From a virus (Duplodnaviria; Heunggongvirae; Uroviricota; Caudoviricetes), in IMG/VR virus record IMGVR_UViG_2724679540_000005: DNA of 7,764 nucleotides. The stretch is one strand, 5' to 3'. The position numbers were made by a program, and so were the translations under genes. Shown one piece after another: positions 1,360 through 7,764 of this stretch. Position 1 is the stretch's first letter; every line of letters starts with the position of its first letter. The notes below the pieces were generated by a model. The model was not told the origin of the DNA and ran no database searches. It saw only the letters and a list, made by a program, of their open reading frames with translations.

Positions 1360-1430
1360 ACCAAAGCATGACATCTCTGTTTCGCACCGAAGGTGACACT
1401 TCTGCTTTGCGTTGACAGGAGAAGCAGGCT

Positions 1431-1586
1431 ATGAAGCAGCAAAAGGCGATGTTAATCGCCCTGATCGTCATCTGTTTAACCGTCATAGTGACGGCACTGG
1501 TAACGAGGAAAGACCTCTGCGAGGTACGAATCCGAACCGGCCAGACGGAGGTCGCTGTCTTCACAGCTTACGAACCTGAGGAGTAA
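1431..1586 (+). CDS. hokD: Hok-family small membrane toxin (HokD/RelF), 51 aa
   Basis: Hand-translated ORF MKQQKAMLIALIVICLTVIVTALVTRKDLCEVRIRTGQTEVAVFTAYEPEE, below the ORF-track length cutoff. It has the Hok signature (N-terminal TM helix, conserved C-terminal CEVRIRTGQTEVAVFTAYE) and sits downstream of relE as in the Qin prophage relBEF operon. Confidence 0.9.
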   Translation: MKQQKAMLIALIVICLTVIVTALVTRKDLCEVRIRTGQTEVAVFTAYEPEE

Positions 1587-1654
1587 GAGACCCGGCGAGT
1601 GAGAAATCCCTCGCCACCTCTGATGTGGCAGGCATCCTCAACGCACCCGCACTT

Positions 1655-1683
1655 AACCCGCTTCGGCGGGTTTTTGTTTTTAT
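1655..1683 (+). terminator. Rho-independent terminator closing the relBE-hokD operon
   Basis: GC stem AACCCGC-TTCG-GCGGGTT followed by TTTTTGTTTTTATTTT. Confidence 0.7.
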
Positions 1684-1803
1684 TTTCAACGCATTTGAAG
1701 TTCTGGATGGTGCCGGAATAGAATCAAAAATACTTAAGTAGCGCGCAGGGATAAAAGGGATGGACCCCGAACAGGGGAGTGCTACTTATCTGGAAGGATT
1801 CTG

Positions 1804-2054
1804 ATGATGAACATCGAAGAACTGCGTAAAATTTTTTGTGAAGATGGCCTCTATGCTGTGTGCGTTGAAAATGGAAATATTGTTAGTCATTACCGCATTG
1901 TGTGTTTGCAAAAAATGGGGCTGCGTTAATTAATTTTGTGGATGCCCGAGTGACGGACGGATTTATCTTGCGCGACGGTGAGTTTGTCACTTCATTACAG
2001 GCATTGAAAGAGACCGGAATAAAAGCTGGCTTTTCTGCTTTTTCAGAAGAATAA
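1804..2054 (+). pseudogene. rem: rem-like small prophage gene, split by an apparent 1-nt deletion in a homopolymeric A-tract
   Basis: ORF 1804-1929 (MMNIEELRKIFCEDGLYAVCVENGNIVSHYRIVCLQKMGLR*) ends prematurely. The 0-frame stays open from 1887 to TAA at 2052-2054 (...KNGAALINFVDARVTDGFILRDGEFVTSLQALKETGIKAGFSAFSEE). Adding one A to the A6 run at 1910-1915 restores a single 83-aa protein, the recalled length of Qin Rem. AGGA ribosome-binding site lies upstream of the ATG. Confidence 0.7.
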
Positions 2055-2120
2055 ACTCATCTACAATCTTGCGCGGGGCTGAACTCCCGCTGAGTAACAC
2101 CGTGCCACCGGAGAAAACCG

Positions 2121-2399
2121 ATGGCACGCAACGCAAAATATTACAATCATGATAATTCGACCGTTCTTGCCCACACGCACGAGCGGTATTCTCACGCATT
2201 TAAGTCAGACTGGTACCAGCATCCCTCATGCACTGAAGAACAGGCCGAATGGCTCATTCAGTGTTACCGCAGGCGCGGATGCGAGGTTAAAAAAGCCCTT
2301 AGCCTCGACTACCGTCACTGGATAATCTCCGTCAGGCTCCCTTACTCCGAACAGCCACCGCGTCCGTCCCGCACATTCCAGCAACGGATCTGGAGGTAA
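2121..2399 (+). CDS. Hypothetical small prophage protein, 92 aa, Cys/His/Trp-rich
   Basis: ORF with GGAG ribosome-binding site about 9 nt upstream of the ATG. Its TAA stop lies 1 nt before the downstream gene start, suggesting coupling. No family recognised. Confidence 0.5.
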   Translation: MARNAKYYNHDNSTVLAHTHERYSHAFKSDWYQHPSCTEEQAEWLIQCYRRRGCEVKKALSLDYRHWIISVRLPYSEQPPRPSRTFQQRIWR

Positions 2400-2400
2400 C

Positions 2401-3450
2401 GTGCGGGTATTACTTCGACCTGTTCTGGTTCCGGAACTCGGGCTGGTGGTCCTTAAGCCCGGTCGTGAATCCATGCCGGTATTCCACAATACCCGGTTAC
2501 TGGTGGAGCCGGAACCGAAAAGCATGCGTAATCTGCCGTCCGGGGTCGTTCCTGCCGTTCGCCAGCCGCTGGTGGAAGACAAAACATTGCTGCCGTTTTT
2601 CAGTAACGCACAGGTGATTCGTGCTGCTGGTGGTGCTGGTGCATTGTCTGACTGGCTGTTGCGCCATATTAAATCCTGCCAGTGGCCACACGGCGATTAT
2701 CATCACAGCGAAACCGTCATTCACCGTTATGGTACCGGCGCAATGGTGTTGTGCTGGCACTGCGACAACCAGTTGCGTGACCAGACATCCGAATCACTCG
2801 AGCAACTTGCTCATCAAAACCTGTCAGCATGGATGATTGACGTCATCGGTCACGCAATAAGCGGTACGCAGGAGCGTGAATTATCTCTAGCTGAATTATC
2901 CTGGTGGGCGGTCCGCAATCAGGTGGCGGACGCGCTACCGGAAGCGGTATTACGTCGTTCGCTGGGGTTGCGTGCGGAAAAAATCCGCTCAATGTACCGT
3001 GAAAGCGACATCGTACCGGGAGAGCAGACCGCCACCAGCATACTGAAACAGCGCACAAAAAATCTTGCGCCGCTGCCTCACGCCCACCAGCAACAGAACC
3101 CACAACAGGAAAAGACGGTGGTCAGCATTGCCGTTGATCCTGAGTCTCCGGAATCTTTCATGAAACGACCTAAACGTCGCAGCTGGGTTAACGAGAAATA
3201 CAAACGCTGGGTGAAGACACAGCCGTGTGCGTGTTGTGGTAAGCCAGCCGACGATCCCCATCACCTGATTGGTCATGGTCAGGGCGGAATGGGGACAAAA
3301 TCTCACGATATTTTCACGCTACCGCTGTGTCGGGAGCATCACAACGAGCTTCATGCGGATCCTCTGGCGTTCGAAGAAAAGCATGGTTCTCAGGTTGATT
3401 TAATTTTTCGTTTTCTTGATCACGCCTTTGCAACTGGCGTGCTTGGGTAA
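2401..3450 (+). CDS. ydfU: YdfU-like prophage protein (DUF968 family), 349 aa, with a C-terminal Cys/His-rich HNH-like motif
   Basis: GTG start at 2401 preceded by a perfect GGAGG (2392-2396). Length equals recalled Qin YdfU. C-terminus reads CACCGKPADDPHHLIGHGQGG...CREHHNELH. Position between rem and rusA/Q fits Qin-like gene order. Confidence 0.75.
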   Translation: MRVLLRPVLVPELGLVVLKPGRESMPVFHNTRLLVEPEPKSMRNLPSGVVPAVRQPLVEDKTLLPFFSNAQVIRAAGGAGALSDWLLRHIKSCQWPHGDYHHSETVIHRYGTGAMVLCWHCDNQLRDQTSESLEQLAHQNLSAWMIDVIGHAISGTQERELSLAELSWWAVRNQVADALPEAVLRRSLGLRAEKIRSMYRESDIVPGEQTATSILKQRTKNLAPLPHAHQQQNPQQEKTVVSIAVDPESPESFMKRPKRRSWVNEKYKRWVKTQPCACCGKPADDPHHLIGHGQGGMGTKSHDIFTLPLCREHHNELHADPLAFEEKHGSQVDLIFRFLDHAFATGVLG

Positions 3451-3462
3451 AAGAGGTGACTG

Positions 3463-3819
3463 ATGCTCATAGATTTGGTTTTACCTTACCCGCCGACGGT
3501 GAACACTTACTGGCGACGCCGTGGCAGCACATATTTTATCTCGGAGGAGGGAAAGCGTTATCGCCGGGCTGTGGCGCTTATTGTTCGCCAGCAGCGGCTG
3601 AAATTAAGCCTGTCCGGAAGGCTGGCGATAAAGGTGATTGCAGAGCCACCGGATAAGCGTCGTCGCGACCTGGACAATATCCTGAAAGCACCGCTGGATG
3701 CGCTGACGCATGCGGGAGTGTTAATGGACGATGAGCAGTTTGATGAAATCAATATCGTTCGTGGTCAGCCAGTATCTGGTGGACGTCTGGGGGTGAAGAT
3801 TTACCCCATAATGCATTAA
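3463..3819 (+). CDS. rusA: RusA-family Holliday-junction resolvase, 118 aa
   Basis: Protein has PPTVNTYWRRRG and RRRDLDN motifs and a length typical of RusA. AAGAGGTGA ribosome-binding site upstream. It lies immediately upstream of Q, the canonical lambdoid position. Confidence 0.85.
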   Translation: MLIDLVLPYPPTVNTYWRRRGSTYFISEEGKRYRRAVALIVRQQRLKLSLSGRLAIKVIAEPPDKRRRDLDNILKAPLDALTHAGVLMDDEQFDEINIVRGQPVSGGRLGVKIYPIMH

Positions 3820-3833
3820 GAGCAGGTCAAAAA

Positions 3834-4655
3834 ATGAAACTGGAAGATTTACCGAAATACTACTCCCCAAAATCCCCTGGCCTGACCGATGCATCGGCCT
3901 CAACGTCAAAAGATGCGCTGAGTATCACTGATGTGATGGCCGCGCAGGGCATGACACAGAATCGGGCTGAGATGGGTTTTTCTGCGTTCCTGGGGAAAAT
4001 GGGCATCAGTATGAATGACAGGGCGCGGGCAACAGAATTACTGGCAGATTATGCACTCAGTCGGTGCGATCGTGTGGCGGCGTTGAGAAAACTTCCGGCA
4101 GAAATAAAACCGGTAGTGATGCGCATTATGGCTTCGTACGCTTTTGAGGATTATGCCCGCAGCGCAGCGAGTAAAAAGCAGTGCCCTTGTTGCTATGGGG
4201 AAAAATTTATTGAAAGCATAGTTTTTACAAACAAGATCCAGTATCCGGATGGTAAGCCGCCGGTATGGGCAAAGTGCACGAAAGGTGTGTATCCGTCTTA
4301 CTGGGAAGAATGGAAAAAAGTCAGGGAGGTGGTAAAAGTTGCCTGTCCGGAGTGTGGCGGAAAGGGTGAGGTTTCCACCGCCTGTAAGGATTGCCGTGGG
4401 CGTGGTGTCGCCATTCATCGTGAAGAGTCGGTAAAACGTGGTATGCCTGTTATCAGAGACTGCCAGCGTTGTGGTGGTCGTGGCTATGAAAGACTACCAT
4501 CAACGGAGGCATTTAATGCTATATGCGAGGTGACAAACCAGATAACACGCGCGTCATGGGAAAAAACAGTTAAGAAATTTTATGATGCGCTGGTGACCCG
4601 GTTTGATATTGAAGAAGCATGGGCTGAGCGGCAGTTAAAAAAGGTAACTAGGTAA
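3834..4655 (+). CDS. Late-gene antiterminator Q (Q21/Q82-like), 273 aa, with four DnaJ-type CxxCxGxG zinc-finger repeats
   Basis: N-terminus MKLEDLPKYYSPKSP...TDVMAAQGM resembles prophage Q proteins as recalled. Repeats CPCCYGEK, CPECGGKG, CKDCRGRG, CQRCGGRG. The gene is followed directly by a late promoter, a terminator, tRNAs and lysis genes. Confidence 0.8.
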   Translation: MKLEDLPKYYSPKSPGLTDASASTSKDALSITDVMAAQGMTQNRAEMGFSAFLGKMGISMNDRARATELLADYALSRCDRVAALRKLPAEIKPVVMRIMASYAFEDYARSAASKKQCPCCYGEKFIESIVFTNKIQYPDGKPPVWAKCTKGVYPSYWEEWKKVREVVKVACPECGGKGEVSTACKDCRGRGVAIHREESVKRGMPVIRDCQRCGGRGYERLPSTEAFNAICEVTNQITRASWEKTVKKFYDALVTRFDIEEAWAERQLKKVTR

Positions 4656-4660
4656 CAAGG

Positions 4661-4700
4661 TTGATTTTTCCGGAATCTGTGGTAAATTCGTCATAATGAT
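4661..4700 (+). promoter_or_regulatory. PR'-like late promoter (with presumed Q-utilisation region)
   Basis: TTGATT (4661-4666), 16-nt spacer, TAAATT (4683-4688), immediately downstream of the Q stop. The position matches lambdoid PR'. Confidence 0.5.
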
Positions 4701-4737
4701 GGGCGTTTTATGCCTGACGTTAGAAGAGTTTCTACAA

Positions 4738-4761
4738 CCCGCCGCTGAGCGGGTTTTTTAT
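4738..4761 (+). terminator. tR'-like rho-independent terminator (end of the short 6S-type late leader transcript)
   Basis: CCCGC-CGCTGA-GCGGG stem-loop followed by TTTTTTATT, about 50-70 nt downstream of the putative PR'. Confidence 0.65.
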
Positions 4762-4798
4762 TGCGAAATTAATTACGGACCGTTATTATTCTGCTCCC

Positions 4799-4874
4799 GG
4801 CCCTTTAGCTCAGTGGTGAGAGCGAGCGACTCATAATCGCCAGGTCGCTGGTTCAAATCCAGCAAGGGCCACCA
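4799..4874 (+). tRNA. tRNA with CAU anticodon, ileX/ileZ-like (tRNA-Ile2, lysidine-dependent; automated tools would likely call tRNA-Met)
   Basis: 76 nt, GGCCCTT/AAGGGCC acceptor stem, anticodon loop CTCATAA, T-loop GGTTCAAATCC, 3' CCA encoded. Close to E. coli ileX as recalled. Confidence 0.9.
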
Positions 4875-4975
4875 TCACAAACCGCCATTAGCTTATCAGG
4901 AAGAGCAGACGACACGATAACAGGGTTGTTGGTGCGGGGGGCGGGTCCCCGATGGCGGTCCATTATCGGTATTCA

Positions 4976-5052
4976 GCGTTGTTAGCTCAGCCGGACAGAG
5001 CAATTGCCTTCTAAGCAATCGGTCACTGGTTCGAATCCAGTACAGCGCGCCA
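4976..5052 (+). tRNA. tRNA-Arg (anticodon UCU, argU/argN-like; reads rare AGA/AGG codons)
   Basis: 77 nt, acceptor GCGTTGT/ACAGCGC (one G-U pair), anticodon stem ATTGC/GCAAT with loop CTTCTAA, T-arm ACTGG-TTCGAAT-CCAGT, 3' GCCA. Confidence 0.9.
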
Positions 5053-5162
5053 TATTCATTCTTCCAGATTCCTTCCGGCAGAGCCTTATACTGAAATATA
5101 CCTGGCTCAGGATATTGTTGAAAATATTATATATTTGTCAAAAATAAAAGTTCTGTTAAGTA

Positions 5163-5516
5163 TTGATTGAGTATTTGTTATACGGTCTAATGGTTTTTTC
5201 AGCATTAAGTATTTATCATTCATATGGTGTGGGTAGAGTGAATATTGATGAGGCGTCGGGGTGTTTCATCCTTAGGCAGCGTATTGATATAGTCAATGCA
5301 GCACGAGCAAAGGCCTTCAGCCGTTTGACAGTTTTGTTCTGTACTCCTGATCGTCTTTCGGGAAGAGACGTTATTATTCTGAATAGTGATGCTATACAGA
5401 GGGTTTGCGATGAGTTCATGGTTGCTAATTCAGAATTATTTGCTCTTGTTCAGGAGTACAACAGAATAGCCAGGACCTGTGGTATGGATGAACTTCGGAT
5501 TACTCATCTGGGGTAG
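5163..5516 (+). CDS. Hypothetical protein, low-GC orphan ORF (117 aa from TTG at 5163; 108 aa if ATG 5190 is used)
   Basis: Open frame of 354 nt in an AT-rich segment. No convincing ribosome-binding site. No recognisable family. Could be a gene fragment. Confidence 0.35.
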   Translation: MIEYLLYGLMVFSALSIYHSYGVGRVNIDEASGCFILRQRIDIVNAARAKAFSRLTVLFCTPDRLSGRDVIILNSDAIQRVCDEFMVANSELFALVQEYNRIARTCGMDELRITHLG

Positions 5517-5839
5517 ATACATATCTGGATTATCACCTGTTACGGTAAAAAGTGATTGCTTACTGTTTTTGTGAATGGCATTGCAGCAGCCGGATAATGT
5601 CAGTGCCGGCTGACGGTGTGCTGGTGGCGGGTGTGGTGGTTGTTGCTTTCCCGTTGCTGAAAAAGAAAACGCCAGACTGTTAGCCGGGTATCAGTTAGCG
5701 GGAGAAATTTTTAAATACTTCACAATTCAGGCGGTTGACTGTTGTCTGGTTTGCGGGGAGTTTGTTAAAAGAAACTGGCATGGTGAATCCCCCTGTGCGG
5801 AGGGGCAATCAGCGAGTAGGTATATGGGATAATCGCGGA

Positions 5840-5944
5840 TTCAGGTGCTGGTACTGAATTCACCGGGAGGCACCCGGCACCATGCAATGGCACATAGCGC
5901 CACTCTCCAGCCCCTCTCCGGAGGGGCTGTTTATATTGATTTTG
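5840..5944 (+). ncRNA. Candidate small RNA: three consecutive hairpins ending in an intrinsic terminator
   Basis: Possible -10 GATAAT at 5828-5833. Hairpins ATTCAG/CTGAAT (5839-5859) and CCGGG/CCCGG (5863-5877). Terminator stem CAGCCCCTC-TCCG-GAGGGGCTG (5908-5929) followed by TTTATATTGATTTT. No ORF of 60 aa or more covers this region on either strand. Confidence 0.3.
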
Positions 5945-5963
5945 TCAGATGTGAGTAAACTCC

Positions 5964-6299
5964 TTATGGACTTTGTTGTTTTAGTCCATAAGGACATATT
6001 TGCAGAGTGCAACGGTTATTAAAGCATTCATTCAATACGTTATCTGTATTTGTAGGGCATTCCTGGCTGTTTTTGATTAAATTCCAGAATGTTTTATTGA
6101 ATGGTACTACGTTGTAAATGGTTACAGGTAGCACTTTGTTATTGAGCATGATGCCTGTGTGAGTCAGTGTAAATATACTTTCAGGAGGTAAGAAAGCATC
6201 CGATTGATACCAGATTATTAATTTTATTTTACTCCATATGACTGAAAAAGATATTCCGCATGATGGCTGGATAACTGTATCAATCACAATCCACTTCAT
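5964..6299 (-). CDS. Hypothetical protein, low-GC orphan ORF, 111 aa, Cys/Asn/Ile-rich
   Basis: ATG preceded by AAGGAAA ribosome-binding site (reverse complement of 6304-6311) with about 5-nt spacing. AT-rich promoter-like region upstream (6300-6540). No recognisable family. The last 10 codons lie inside a perfect 11-bp inverted repeat. Confidence 0.4.
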
Positions 6300-6558
6300 T
6301 TAGTTTCCTTGTTTATGCCTTGCTGGTGATGTTCTGAAAAGTATAAATGATATTTTTGAATTAAACCATAGAGCAGAATTATTTTTCTGATGTTGTTTAT
6401 TGTTTATTTAAATGCAGGGTGGTTTATATCTCGTCTTGTAGTTTATCCATGCATATCTGCTTGATAATCAGGTTTTTATTTAAGGTATGGTTTTGTGTTT
6501 TTTCTGTATTACATGTCAGGTATTTTAAAGAATTATTTTTCAGATGGTGGAAAGAACC

Positions 6559-6747
6559 ATGGCATTTAAACACTATGATGTTGTCAGGGCGGCGCCGCCG
6601 TCAGATCTTGCGGAAAAGCTGACACATAAACTGAAAGAGGGCTGGCAGCCGTTTGGTAGTCCGGTGGCCATAACCCCTTATACCCTGATGCAGGCGATTG
6701 CAGCAGAAGGTGATGTGGTGGTCAGTGGTGCAACTGAGCCGGAGTGA
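6559..6747 (+). CDS. Small phage protein resembling the DUF1737 family (62 aa from ATG 6559)
   Basis: GGTGGAAAG ribosome-binding site 5 nt before ATG 6559; the track's ATG 6544 has none. Sequence MAFKHYDVVRAAPPSDLAEKLTHKLKEGWQPFGSPVAI...LMQAI fits the recalled DUF1737 pattern. Such genes commonly sit next to lambdoid lysis genes. Confidence 0.5.
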   Translation: MAFKHYDVVRAAPPSDLAEKLTHKLKEGWQPFGSPVAITPYTLMQAIAAEGDVVVSGATEPE

Positions 6748-6989
6748 TACTACGTCATCGTACTGGCCCGGCATTCCAGGCCATAAAAGACAGTCTGGCA
6801 GTGGGACTAAATGCACTGACGCTGACGGATATTACCAAAAATGCAACGTATGGCGTTGAGATAGAAAGTCTGGTGCTGGAGATAAATGCACCGGCATCAT
6901 CATAAAAAGTGAGCCAGTCAAATGGAAGGTATCGTTAAACTCACCGGTAGTGTCAGTGGGTCGTCTGAGACGCTTGCATGAGTTATCAG

Positions 6990-7023
6990 AGCCATCAGTA
7001 GTTAACTGGTGGCTTTTTTATTG
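6990..7023 (+). terminator. Rho-independent terminator just upstream of the holin gene
   Basis: Stem AGCCATCAG / CTGGTGGCT (9 bp, one G-U pair), loop TAGTTAA, followed by TTTTTTATTGTTG. Confidence 0.55.
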
Positions 7024-7054
7024 TTGTCAGCTTCCGGATAACGGGAGACGGGGT

Positions 7055-7234
7055 ATGGACCAGATGGAAAAAATCACAACAGGTGTGTCATACACCACGT
7101 CAGCGGTGGGAACGGGCTACTGGTTCCTGCAGTTGCTGGACAGGTTTTCCCCGTCTCAGTGGGCGGCAATAGGCGTGCTGGGGAGTCTGCTGTTTGGGCT
7201 GCTGACATATCTGACTGAGGTGTACTGGCAATAG
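7055..7234 (+). pseudogene. S21-type holin/pinholin (EssD/EssQ family), truncated after about 53 codons by the IS insertion at 7215/7216
   Basis: GGGAGACGGGG ribosome-binding site then ATG 7055. [53 protein letters not shown] matches phage 21 S / EssQ as recalled, including a Met1/Met4 dual-start arrangement. The frame runs into IS sequence and stops at 7232-7234 (TEVYWQ*), so the cytoplasmic C-terminal tail is missing. Confidence 0.75.
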
Positions 7235-7764
7235 CGGACACTACCATTTGTTCTTTTTTTAAGCAGCCATCTGATGATATTTTTCCCTGAAGGCTGCCGG
7301 GGAGATATTCCCCAGACGAGAGTGACGACGCTGACGATTGTAGAAAATCTCAATGTATTCCCGTATTACTGAGATGGCTTCATCCCGGTTATTAAAACGA
7401 TAGTGGCTCAGGCTCTCATTTTTCAGCGTTCCCCAGAAGCTTTCCATCGGAGCGTTGTCGTAACAGTTACCTTTACGCGACATTGATGTTTTCAGACCAA
7501 ACTGCTCCTGTATGACCCGGTAATCGTATGCGCAGTACTGTGAACCTCGATCAGAGTGGTGGATTAGCCCGGCAGGTGGGCGCTGGCTCCTGAGCGCCAT
7601 AAACAGGGCTTTACCTGTCAGCTCTTTTGTCATGCGCTCTCCCATGGCGTAGCCGACAATTTCGCACGTATAAACATCTTTGATGCCAGCGAGGTACAAC
7701 CATCCCTCCTGTGTGGCAACATACGTCAGGTCCGCCACCCAGACCTGATTTGGTGCTGTAGGAG
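7216..7764 (-). mobile_element. IS3-family insertion sequence, second partial copy, inverted relative to the copy at 1-549
   Basis: Exact reverse complement of 1-549. The terminus TGAGGTG... begins at 7216 and interrupts the holin ORF. Confidence 0.85.
7259..7764 (-). CDS. IS3-family transposase OrfB (DDE core), 5'-truncated by the window edge
   Basis: Translation identical to the left-end copy (159-aa track ORF). Frame is open to the window edge. Confidence 0.9.
   Translation of the reverse strand, partial: PTAPNQVWVADLTYVATQEGWLYLAGIKDVYTCEIVGYAMGERMTKELTGKALFMALRSQRPPAGLIHHSDRGSQYCAYDYRVIQEQFGLKTSMSRKGNCYDNAPMESFWGTLKNESLSHYRFNNRDEAISVIREYIEIFYNRQRRHSRLGNISPAAFREKYHQMAA

Follow-up and report, generated by a model that had tools for sequence, protein, structure and literature searches.

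The stretch from 5840 to 5944 in the 7,764-nt viral DNA studied here (the window, meaning the whole stretch analysed) is the 3′ two-thirds of a longer RNA gene on the + strand. The region is very probably a stand-alone gene for an Hfq-binding small RNA (sRNA) of the STnc100 family, encoding a two-module RNA that would act in trans through its tail. It is an ordinary and already known sRNA gene, in that the family is in Rfam and the exact sequence was detected bound to Hfq in 2014.

The family assignment is direct. Rfam family RF02076 (STnc100) matches the + strand at 5749-5938 with a score of 132.4 bits, relative to a gathering score of 47 (E = 8.5e-30), and the match spans model positions 1-206 of 206; a second Rfam family was not detected on the element, even at a permissive E-value. 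The seed of RF02076 comes from Salmonella. Moreover, window 5720-5928 is 100% identical to the EcOnc05 locus of prophage Sp4 in E. coli O157:H7 Sakai, an identity that takes in the promoter, core, linker, and terminator stem. EcOnc05 was described as an orphan Hfq-binding site on the + strand of the Sakai chromosome (1179806-1179914), which passed Hfq-CRAC in 5/5 data sets and whose RNA ran at ~222 nt on a Northern blot (Tree et al. 2014). Its Hfq-CRAC peak projects onto window 5810-5918, and the published EcOnc05 Northern probe is the exact reverse complement of window 5808-5842. Likewise, the published EcOnc04, EcOnc06, and EcOnc27 probes match other STnc100-family variants recovered here. 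No target has been published for EcOnc05. The initial annotation had proposed an Hfq-type sRNA of a lambdoid prophage, transcribed from the + strand and ending near 5940, and this class claim is borne out by the full-length STnc100 match and by the identity with a Sakai RNA seen both by Hfq-CRAC and on Northern blots. The precedents it invoked fit less well: IpeX and DicF are RNAs unrelated to the STnc100 family, and the anti-sRNAs of Stx phages (AsxR, AgvB) are convergent partners of the family, not members of it.

Based on its ORF list, domain searches, and a comparison with RefSeq, the window covers part of a lambdoid prophage (Table 1). The STnc100 element lies between the Q and holin genes, in a gene order identical to that of E. 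coli 042, and the sRNA gene sits at the 3′ edge of a moron insertion site that separates the Q/pR′ unit from the lysis genes. Of 5426 complete E. coli genomes, 2859 have a match to the 541 bp around the element (5560-6100). The whole window arrangement was found in no complete E. coli genome of the collection, the best being 75% covered (1417-7216). Both window ends consist of inverted IS copies of 556 nt (1-556 and 7209-7764) that are 99% complementary and carry rve integrase domains; the right copy extends into the holin ORF and thereby interrupts the lysis cassette. Near the left IS copy, an ORF for a ParE-family toxin (1072-1359) is abutted on its 5′ side by a 79-aa ORF (833-1072), and this pair (833-1359) is probably a toxin-antitoxin pair.

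Table 1. Features of the prophage fragment and of the STnc100-family sRNA gene (window positions).
Feature	Position	Strand	Remarks or basis
DUF968 gene	2401-3450		
RusA gene	3463-3819		
Q-type antiterminator gene	3834-4655		PF03589
Likely pR′-tR′ unit, -35	4661-4666		TTGATT
Likely pR′-tR′ unit, extended -10	4683-4688 (-10)		TGgTAAATT
Likely pR′-tR′ unit, terminator	4736-4755		AACCCGC/GCGGGTT, then T run
tRNA(cat)	4799-4874		ARAGORN: tRNA-Met, anticodon CAT; RefSeq, same gene: tRNA-Ile
tRNA-Arg(tct)	4976-5052		
Unannotated ORF	5163-5516		
DUF3927 ORF	5552-5683	+	Small, hydrophobic, 43 aa, C-terminal end ...VLVAGVVVVAFPLLKKKTPDC; RefSeq, same DNA in E. coli 042
CACAAT box, candidate alternative -10	5721-5726	+	Conserved only in the subclass carrying CTCACAATTCAG
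TTGACT, neighbour overlapping the -35-like hexamer	5735-5740	+	Read from sequence
-35-like hexamer TTGTCT	5742-5747	+	Read from sequence
Extended -10, TGtTAAAAG	5763-5771	+	7 nt 5′ of G5778
Structured core, ~108 nt	5778-5885	+	Minimum-free-energy fold, covariance model R1
P1	5778-5785/5878-5885	+	Closes junction holding P2, P3, P4, P5
P2	5790-5794/5801-5805	+	
Pseudoknot 5′ strand, AUCAGC	5808-5813	+	Just 3′ of P2; 2-nt overlap with P3
P3	5812-5815/5833-5836	+	Weak, variable
P4	5837-5844/5854-5861	+	
Pseudoknot 3′ strand, GCUGGU	5847-5852	+	P4 loop
P5	5863-5867/5873-5877	+	
Linker with candidate seed AAUGGCACAUAGCGCCACUCUC	5886-5907	+	Fold
Small 4-bp hairpin in linker	5888-5891/5899-5902	+	Fold
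Intrinsic terminator	5908-5929 (5908-5916/5921-5929)	+	9-bp stem, 7 G-C pairs, loop UCCG; terminator scan, fold
U-rich tail UUUAUAUUGAUUUU	5930-5943	+	Interrupted
iraM-like gene	5964-6299	-	Convergent to sRNA; ORF list, RefSeq 042, Sakai comparison
P21-type holin gene	6950-7234		

Directly after Q, the segment 4661-4762 is likely a pR′-tR′ unit that would yield an RNA of ~65 nt, comparable to StxS or lambda 6S, immediately 5′ of two tRNA genes. Its initial transcribed sequence, AATGATGGGCG, resembles the lambda pR′ pause element, AACGATGGGTT. At the position corresponding to the first of these tRNA genes, Sakai Sp4 also has a CAT-anticodon gene, annotated ileZ1 (tRNA-Ile). Further 3′, the DUF3927 ORF lies directly 5′ of the window sRNA and also precedes PasD1, PasD2, EcOnc04, and EcOnc06; it does not precede EcOnc05 (Sp4) or EcOnc27 (Sp5). 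Naive ORF clustering of the family flanks was noisy and confirmed only DUF1737 on the 3′ side and a methylase and Q on the 5′ side.

This part of lambdoid prophages has been described as a niche for convergent sRNA gene pairs, located 3′ of pR′ between the morons and a conserved ORF preceding the lysis genes (Tree et al. 2014). In the window, the convergent sRNA partner is replaced by iraM, the iraM-like gene filling the slot held by an AsxR/AgvB-type anti-sRNA in other prophages. AsxR and AgvB occupy the same genomic niche and form convergent pairs with STnc100-family genes, but they are RNAs of 51-60 nt from the opposite strand, unrelated in sequence, that serve as sponges for FnrS and GcvB. 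The Sp4 locus, like the window element, has the morons on one side and the lysis cassette on the other, and differs in both flanks: the window has an interrupted U-tail and the iraM-like gene on the 3′ side, where Sakai has the convergent sRNAs EcOnc08/21, and DUF3927 on the 5′ side, where Sakai has the tRNA gene argO. A perfect 11-bp hairpin at 5962-5993 (CCTTATGGACT / AGTCCATAAGG, loop TTGTTGTTTT) overlaps the final codons and stop of iraM; no T run follows its stem on either strand. Because no T run follows the terminator hairpin of the sRNA on the minus strand, transcription from iraM may continue into the sRNA gene in the antisense direction.

Several relatives of the element have been studied in pathogenic strains. 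Northern blots have validated PasD1 and PasD2 of EPEC E2348/69, and the Hfq RIL-seq chimeras of the two RNAs involve their 3′ ends (Pearl Mizrahi et al. 2021; Zhu, Shabalina and Storz 2026 preprint), and a common ancestor of PasD and STnc100 has already been concluded (Zhu, Shabalina and Storz 2026 preprint). Consistent with this, PasD1/2 align with the window and score 50.7 bits with the core covariance model R1 described below; with Rfam RF02076, the PasD loci fall below the gathering score. They share with the window the promoter geometry, the 5′ start GCAUGGUGAAUCC, P1, P2, P4, the pseudoknot, and the DUF3927 neighbour, and differ in a degenerate P5, a shorter P2 loop, and another tail and seed (CCUUGUGAG), with the terminator located 60-65 nt past the core. 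The PasD1/2 RNAs were not depleted in an hfq deletion strain (RNA-seq log2 fold changes of +0.55 and -0.18), which suggests that Hfq dependence varies within the family. EcOnc27/sRNA103, whose core begins 104 nt after stx2B in an Stx2 phage, belongs to the same family with the same architecture, and is likewise Hfq-binding and Northern-detected; it differs in having its own P3, P4, pseudoknot, and tail sequences, and AsxR as its convergent partner. Finally, 11/11 STnc100 copies of EDL933 are transcribed. A scan of genome contigs with a 15-base pattern returned chance matches only, in unrelated phyla, and a BLAST search of a phage collection with a distant family variant returned no match.

The 5′ module of the RNA is a conserved core of five helices. 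A pattern scan of IMG/VR recovered at least 120 loci, with 47 distinct cores among the matches listed, and a covariance model of the core, R1, scores 109.5 bits at 5778-5887 of the window. Covariation analysis across homologous prophage loci, which the initial annotation had put forward as a check, was run, and compensatory changes support both the helices and a pseudoknot. Specifically, when 55 distinct sequences were aligned with the model as guide, 97% of cells paired, relative to 36-46% in slid-register controls, and two-sided changes occur in 20 of 26 pairs. By helix, these changes affect 7/8 pairs of P1, 4/5 of P2, and 8/8 of P4, values reached in 0 of 500 shuffles, although the alignment was itself fitted to the model; in an independent MAFFT alignment, two-sided changes were seen in 7/8 pairs of P4 and 2/8 of P1. 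Relative to shuffled controls, the fold has a z-score of -3.06 for 5840-5944 and -2.66 for 5778-5943.

The pseudoknot joins the segment just 3′ of P2 to the loop of P4, and appears across variants in about a dozen different complementary versions, for example AAUGAUC/GAUCAUU (PasD), ACUGGAUA/UAUCCAGU, and CCAGUC/GACUGG. Since the MAFFT register is poor at this site (40% of cells paired), the pseudoknot was scored instead by a register-free test, in which a pairing of at least 6 bp was present in 90% of 31 distinct junction/loop combinations, as opposed to 8.6% with shuffled loops. It is mentioned neither in the Rfam structure line nor in the 2026 PasD/STnc100 preprint. Other parts of the core hardly vary at all: P2, P5, and several junction bases are near-invariant, and the invariant bases include GGUGAAUCC, the GCGG of the P2 loop, and CCGGGAGGCACCCGG. 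Candidate contacts of the P2 loop with P5, and of the P2-loop GCGG with a YGCR before P4, involve only invariant bases, so that covariation is uninformative on them.

Around this core, which is kept nearly unchanged, tails, terminators, and neighbouring genes have been exchanged. Tandem arrays of two to four diverged STnc100-type cores were also observed in IMG/VR, 5′ of DUF1737-holin genes (L127, 2324-3350; L200, 5848-6817; L129, 3150-3743; L137; L223); most array copies have a promoter-like sequence of their own on the 5′ side, and some have no terminator ahead of the next copy. PasA and PasD copies are described as dispersed, not tandem (2026 preprint).

The 3′ module comprises a linker, an intrinsic terminator, and a U-rich end. 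Across the family, the tail consists of a linker of 20-60 nt followed by an intrinsic terminator and a U run, and falls into ~25 unrelated sequence classes among the matches listed, which have been recombined with different cores. The predicted seed of PasD and its RIL-seq chimeras fall in the part of the RNA that corresponds to the linker, and by analogy the linker at 5886-5907 is the candidate seed of the window RNA. In the 5000-6600 interval, three terminator-like sites were found, relative to 1.1 expected from shuffles. The terminator stem of the element is followed by TTTATATTGATTTT / UUUAUAUU and equals that of Sakai EcOnc05 up to 5928. Homology with Sakai Sp4 stops between 5928 and 5930, just past the stem, where Sakai continues with UUUCUUAUGG, a convergent terminator, and the sRNAs EcOnc08/21 (L245, 2428 onward), while the window continues into the iraM-like gene on the minus strand. 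A terminator hairpin with a U-rich 3′ end is the usual Hfq-binding module of sRNAs. In the window, the U run is interrupted and thus weaker than in other family variants, and as this tail also differs from that of the validated Sakai copy, termination and Hfq binding of the window copy may be weaker.

The initial annotation had also noted consecutive hairpins that end in a 9-bp GC stem with a U-rich tail. These hairpins are present on the + strand, but the first of them is non-native when 5840-5944 is folded alone, and the full RNA gives P4 and P5 instead. Nor do the proposed bounds of 5840-5944 hold, as 5840 cuts the 5′ strand of P4 and the unit begins at 5778 or further 5′, at least 60 bases upstream.

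As for the promoter, the -35-like hexamer TTGTCT and the extended -10 TGtTAAAAG are separated by an 18-nt spacer. This geometry, a -35 followed after 17-18 nt by TAAAA(A/G), recurs in PasD1/2, EcOnc04/06, and the IMG/VR variants despite differing upstream regions, and the 5′ end of PasD1, as estimated by RNA-seq (NC_011601, position 1060260), aligns with G5778. The RNA would accordingly begin at G5778 and be ~160 nt long. The CACAAT box could alternatively drive a start near 5733, giving an RNA of ~206 nt, which would come into line with the ~222 nt seen on Northern blots for the identical EcOnc05. This longer form keeps the core fold. With a start near 5733, the leader GGGGAGU (5755-5761) can pair with ACUCUCC in the linker (5903-5909), a pairing that would close off the core and mask the candidate seed; a short outer helix is drawn at about this position in the Rfam structure line.

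Published Northern sizes exceed the lengths predicted from P1 to different degrees. For EcOnc06 (159 nt predicted, ~177 nt observed) and EcOnc04 (194 and ~222 nt), the excess is 11-14% and looks like a calibration offset. For EcOnc05 of Sakai (157 and ~222 nt) and EcOnc27 (173 and 235/247 nt), it is ~40%, and the sizes fit a start ~45 nt further 5′. Whether at G5778 or near 5733, the RNA start is far 5′ of 5840, and the transcript of ~100 nt that had initially been predicted gives way to one of ~160-206 nt.

Taken as a whole, these features suggest how the gene may work. In the lysogen, its own sigma-70 promoter (TTGTCT, 18-nt spacer, TGtTAAAAG) would drive transcription, presumably constitutive, from about G5778 or possibly from near 5733. 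Judging from the sequence, the transcript would stop at the intrinsic terminator at 5908-5929, yielding an RNA of ~160-206 nt in which the pseudoknotted five-helix 5′ core (5778-5885) is joined to a variable 3′ tail of single-stranded linker, terminator hairpin, and U-rich end. Hfq would bind this RNA, as has been demonstrated for the identical O157 Sakai sequence, and the linker would serve as the seed for trans pairing to mRNAs with the help of Hfq, as the PasD RIL-seq data and the exchange of tails between variants suggest. The terminator may also insulate the lysis genes from upstream moron transcription, with Q-modified polymerase reading through on induction.

The core is aptamer-like, with covarying helices, a pseudoknot, invariant junction and loop bases, and a P2 and P5 of almost invariant sequence; the part that varies is the terminator-bearing tail, and the element is always 5′ of the DUF1737-holin cassette. 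These properties would suit a cis-acting RNA of the late operon, either a riboswitch-like leader or a processive antiterminator of the HK022 put or Bacillus EAR type, for which the tail and terminator would serve as the expression platform of the lysis genes. Such a role is nevertheless improbable. Homologues accumulate as discrete, terminated sRNAs and not as read-through transcripts, in the window iraM comes next, in convergent orientation, with the first + strand ORF only at ~6544, ~600 nt away; copies also occur in tandem arrays of two to four, most with their own promoter-like sequence, and a constitutive promoter with antiterminated transcription into the lysis genes would kill the lysogen. 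A riboswitch or cis leader was therefore rejected, there being a convergent next gene, no same-strand gene immediately 3′, and copies in arrays. The put RNA is likewise a structured phage RNA immediately past a promoter, but it folds into a V shape of two stems over 73 nt (PMC9378689) and acts in cis on RNA polymerase, and it has no homology to the element; a search of the 40.7-kb HK022 genome with the core model gave no match up to an E-value of 10. With architectures that differ, no HK022 match, and family RNAs that terminate efficiently, a put-like antiterminator was rejected as well. Less probable still is that the element is a short constitutive pR′-to-tR′ transcript made without Q, a counterpart of lambda 6S RNA or StxS, even though it lies 3′ of a Q-type antiterminator gene and pairs a promoter with a strong terminator. 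As is presumed for the STnc100-family RNAs, StxS and lambda 6S are short prophage RNAs of the lysogen whose terminator is overridden by Q-modified polymerase, and StxS also binds Hfq; however, they start at pR′ right after Q and have no sequence or structural similarity to the STnc100 element. A much better pR′-tR′ unit exists in the window directly after Q, and the element lies 1.1 kb further 3′, past two tRNA genes and two ORFs. In Sp5 the family member comes after stx2AB and StxS before it, and the family accompanies different Q proteins and also occurs in arrays. Identity as a pR′-tR′ leader was thus rejected for the element, the candidate unit being 4661-4762.

The initial annotation had named a GATAAT as a possible -10, from which an RNA of ~100 nt would start at ~5840. 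The hexamer is indeed present at 5828-5833, the Hfq-CRAC peak of EcOnc05 is 3′-biased, and processed 3′ fragments are common among sRNAs. However, no -35 accompanies GATAAT and the promoter scan does not list it; the hexamer belongs to the variable P3 loop, many variants lack it, and a start at 5840 would delete P1 and P2 along with the pseudoknot, three elements that are under selection. With published sizes of 177-247 nt, a primary RNA of this kind is very improbable. A small protein encoded by the region is the least probable reading of all. ORFs do occur on both strands, namely a 42-aa ORF at 5765-5893 on the minus strand, which RefSeq lists in E. coli 042 as a partial pseudogene, and a 46-aa ORF at 5882-6022 on the + strand; the RefSeq partial "hypothetical protein" overlies the element, and ribosome footprints have been seen on some EDL933 STnc100 copies. 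Substitutions, however, keep base pairs and not codons, the + strand ORF crosses a terminator and tails that are wholly different between variants, and the AUG sits in P1 and is replaced in some variants. The small-ORF readings were consequently rejected, as pairing and not codons is preserved. The statement that no ORF of 60 aa or more covers the region is correct, with only ORFs of 40-50 aa overlapping it. In RefSeq, the sRNA is unannotated in both copies inspected (E. coli 042 and Sakai Sp4). The partial pseudogene of E. coli 042 lies opposite the sRNA core (L001, 6209-6334, equivalent to window 5768-5893, minus strand) and is probably an annotation artefact.

An STnc100-family sRNA that acts in trans through its tail thus remains the preferred reading, and the role of the core within it is a separate matter. 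A plain seed-pairing model leaves such strong conservation of the core unexplained. As a best guess, the core is a folding or stability domain or a protein-binding domain. A more radical reading, tentative but with a real if minority chance of being right, is that the core is an autonomous functional RNA domain that recognises a particular protein or ligand of host or phage, or shields the 5′ end of the RNA, and that the tails merely ride along.

The observation of an sRNA at 5840-5944 adds nothing new in itself, as relatives have already been studied in EPEC and EHEC. It has some value for annotation, given that RefSeq misses the sRNA in 042 and Sp4 and lists a partial pseudo-ORF over it in 042. 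It is also of medical interest in that one member of the STnc100 family lies directly 3′ of stx2. One study (PMC12711010) reports a SNP at +90 and a T deletion at +103 after stx2B as defining features that predict haemolytic uraemic syndrome. Mapped on Sakai Sp5 (L248, 630-652; 82-104 nt past stx2B), these features fall in the TGtTAAAAA -10 region and in the stretch before the P1 start of EcOnc27, outside the body of the RNA. Finally, the conservation of the family sits in a pseudoknotted 5′ domain and not in any seed, which is unusual among base-pairing sRNAs and unexplained in published work.
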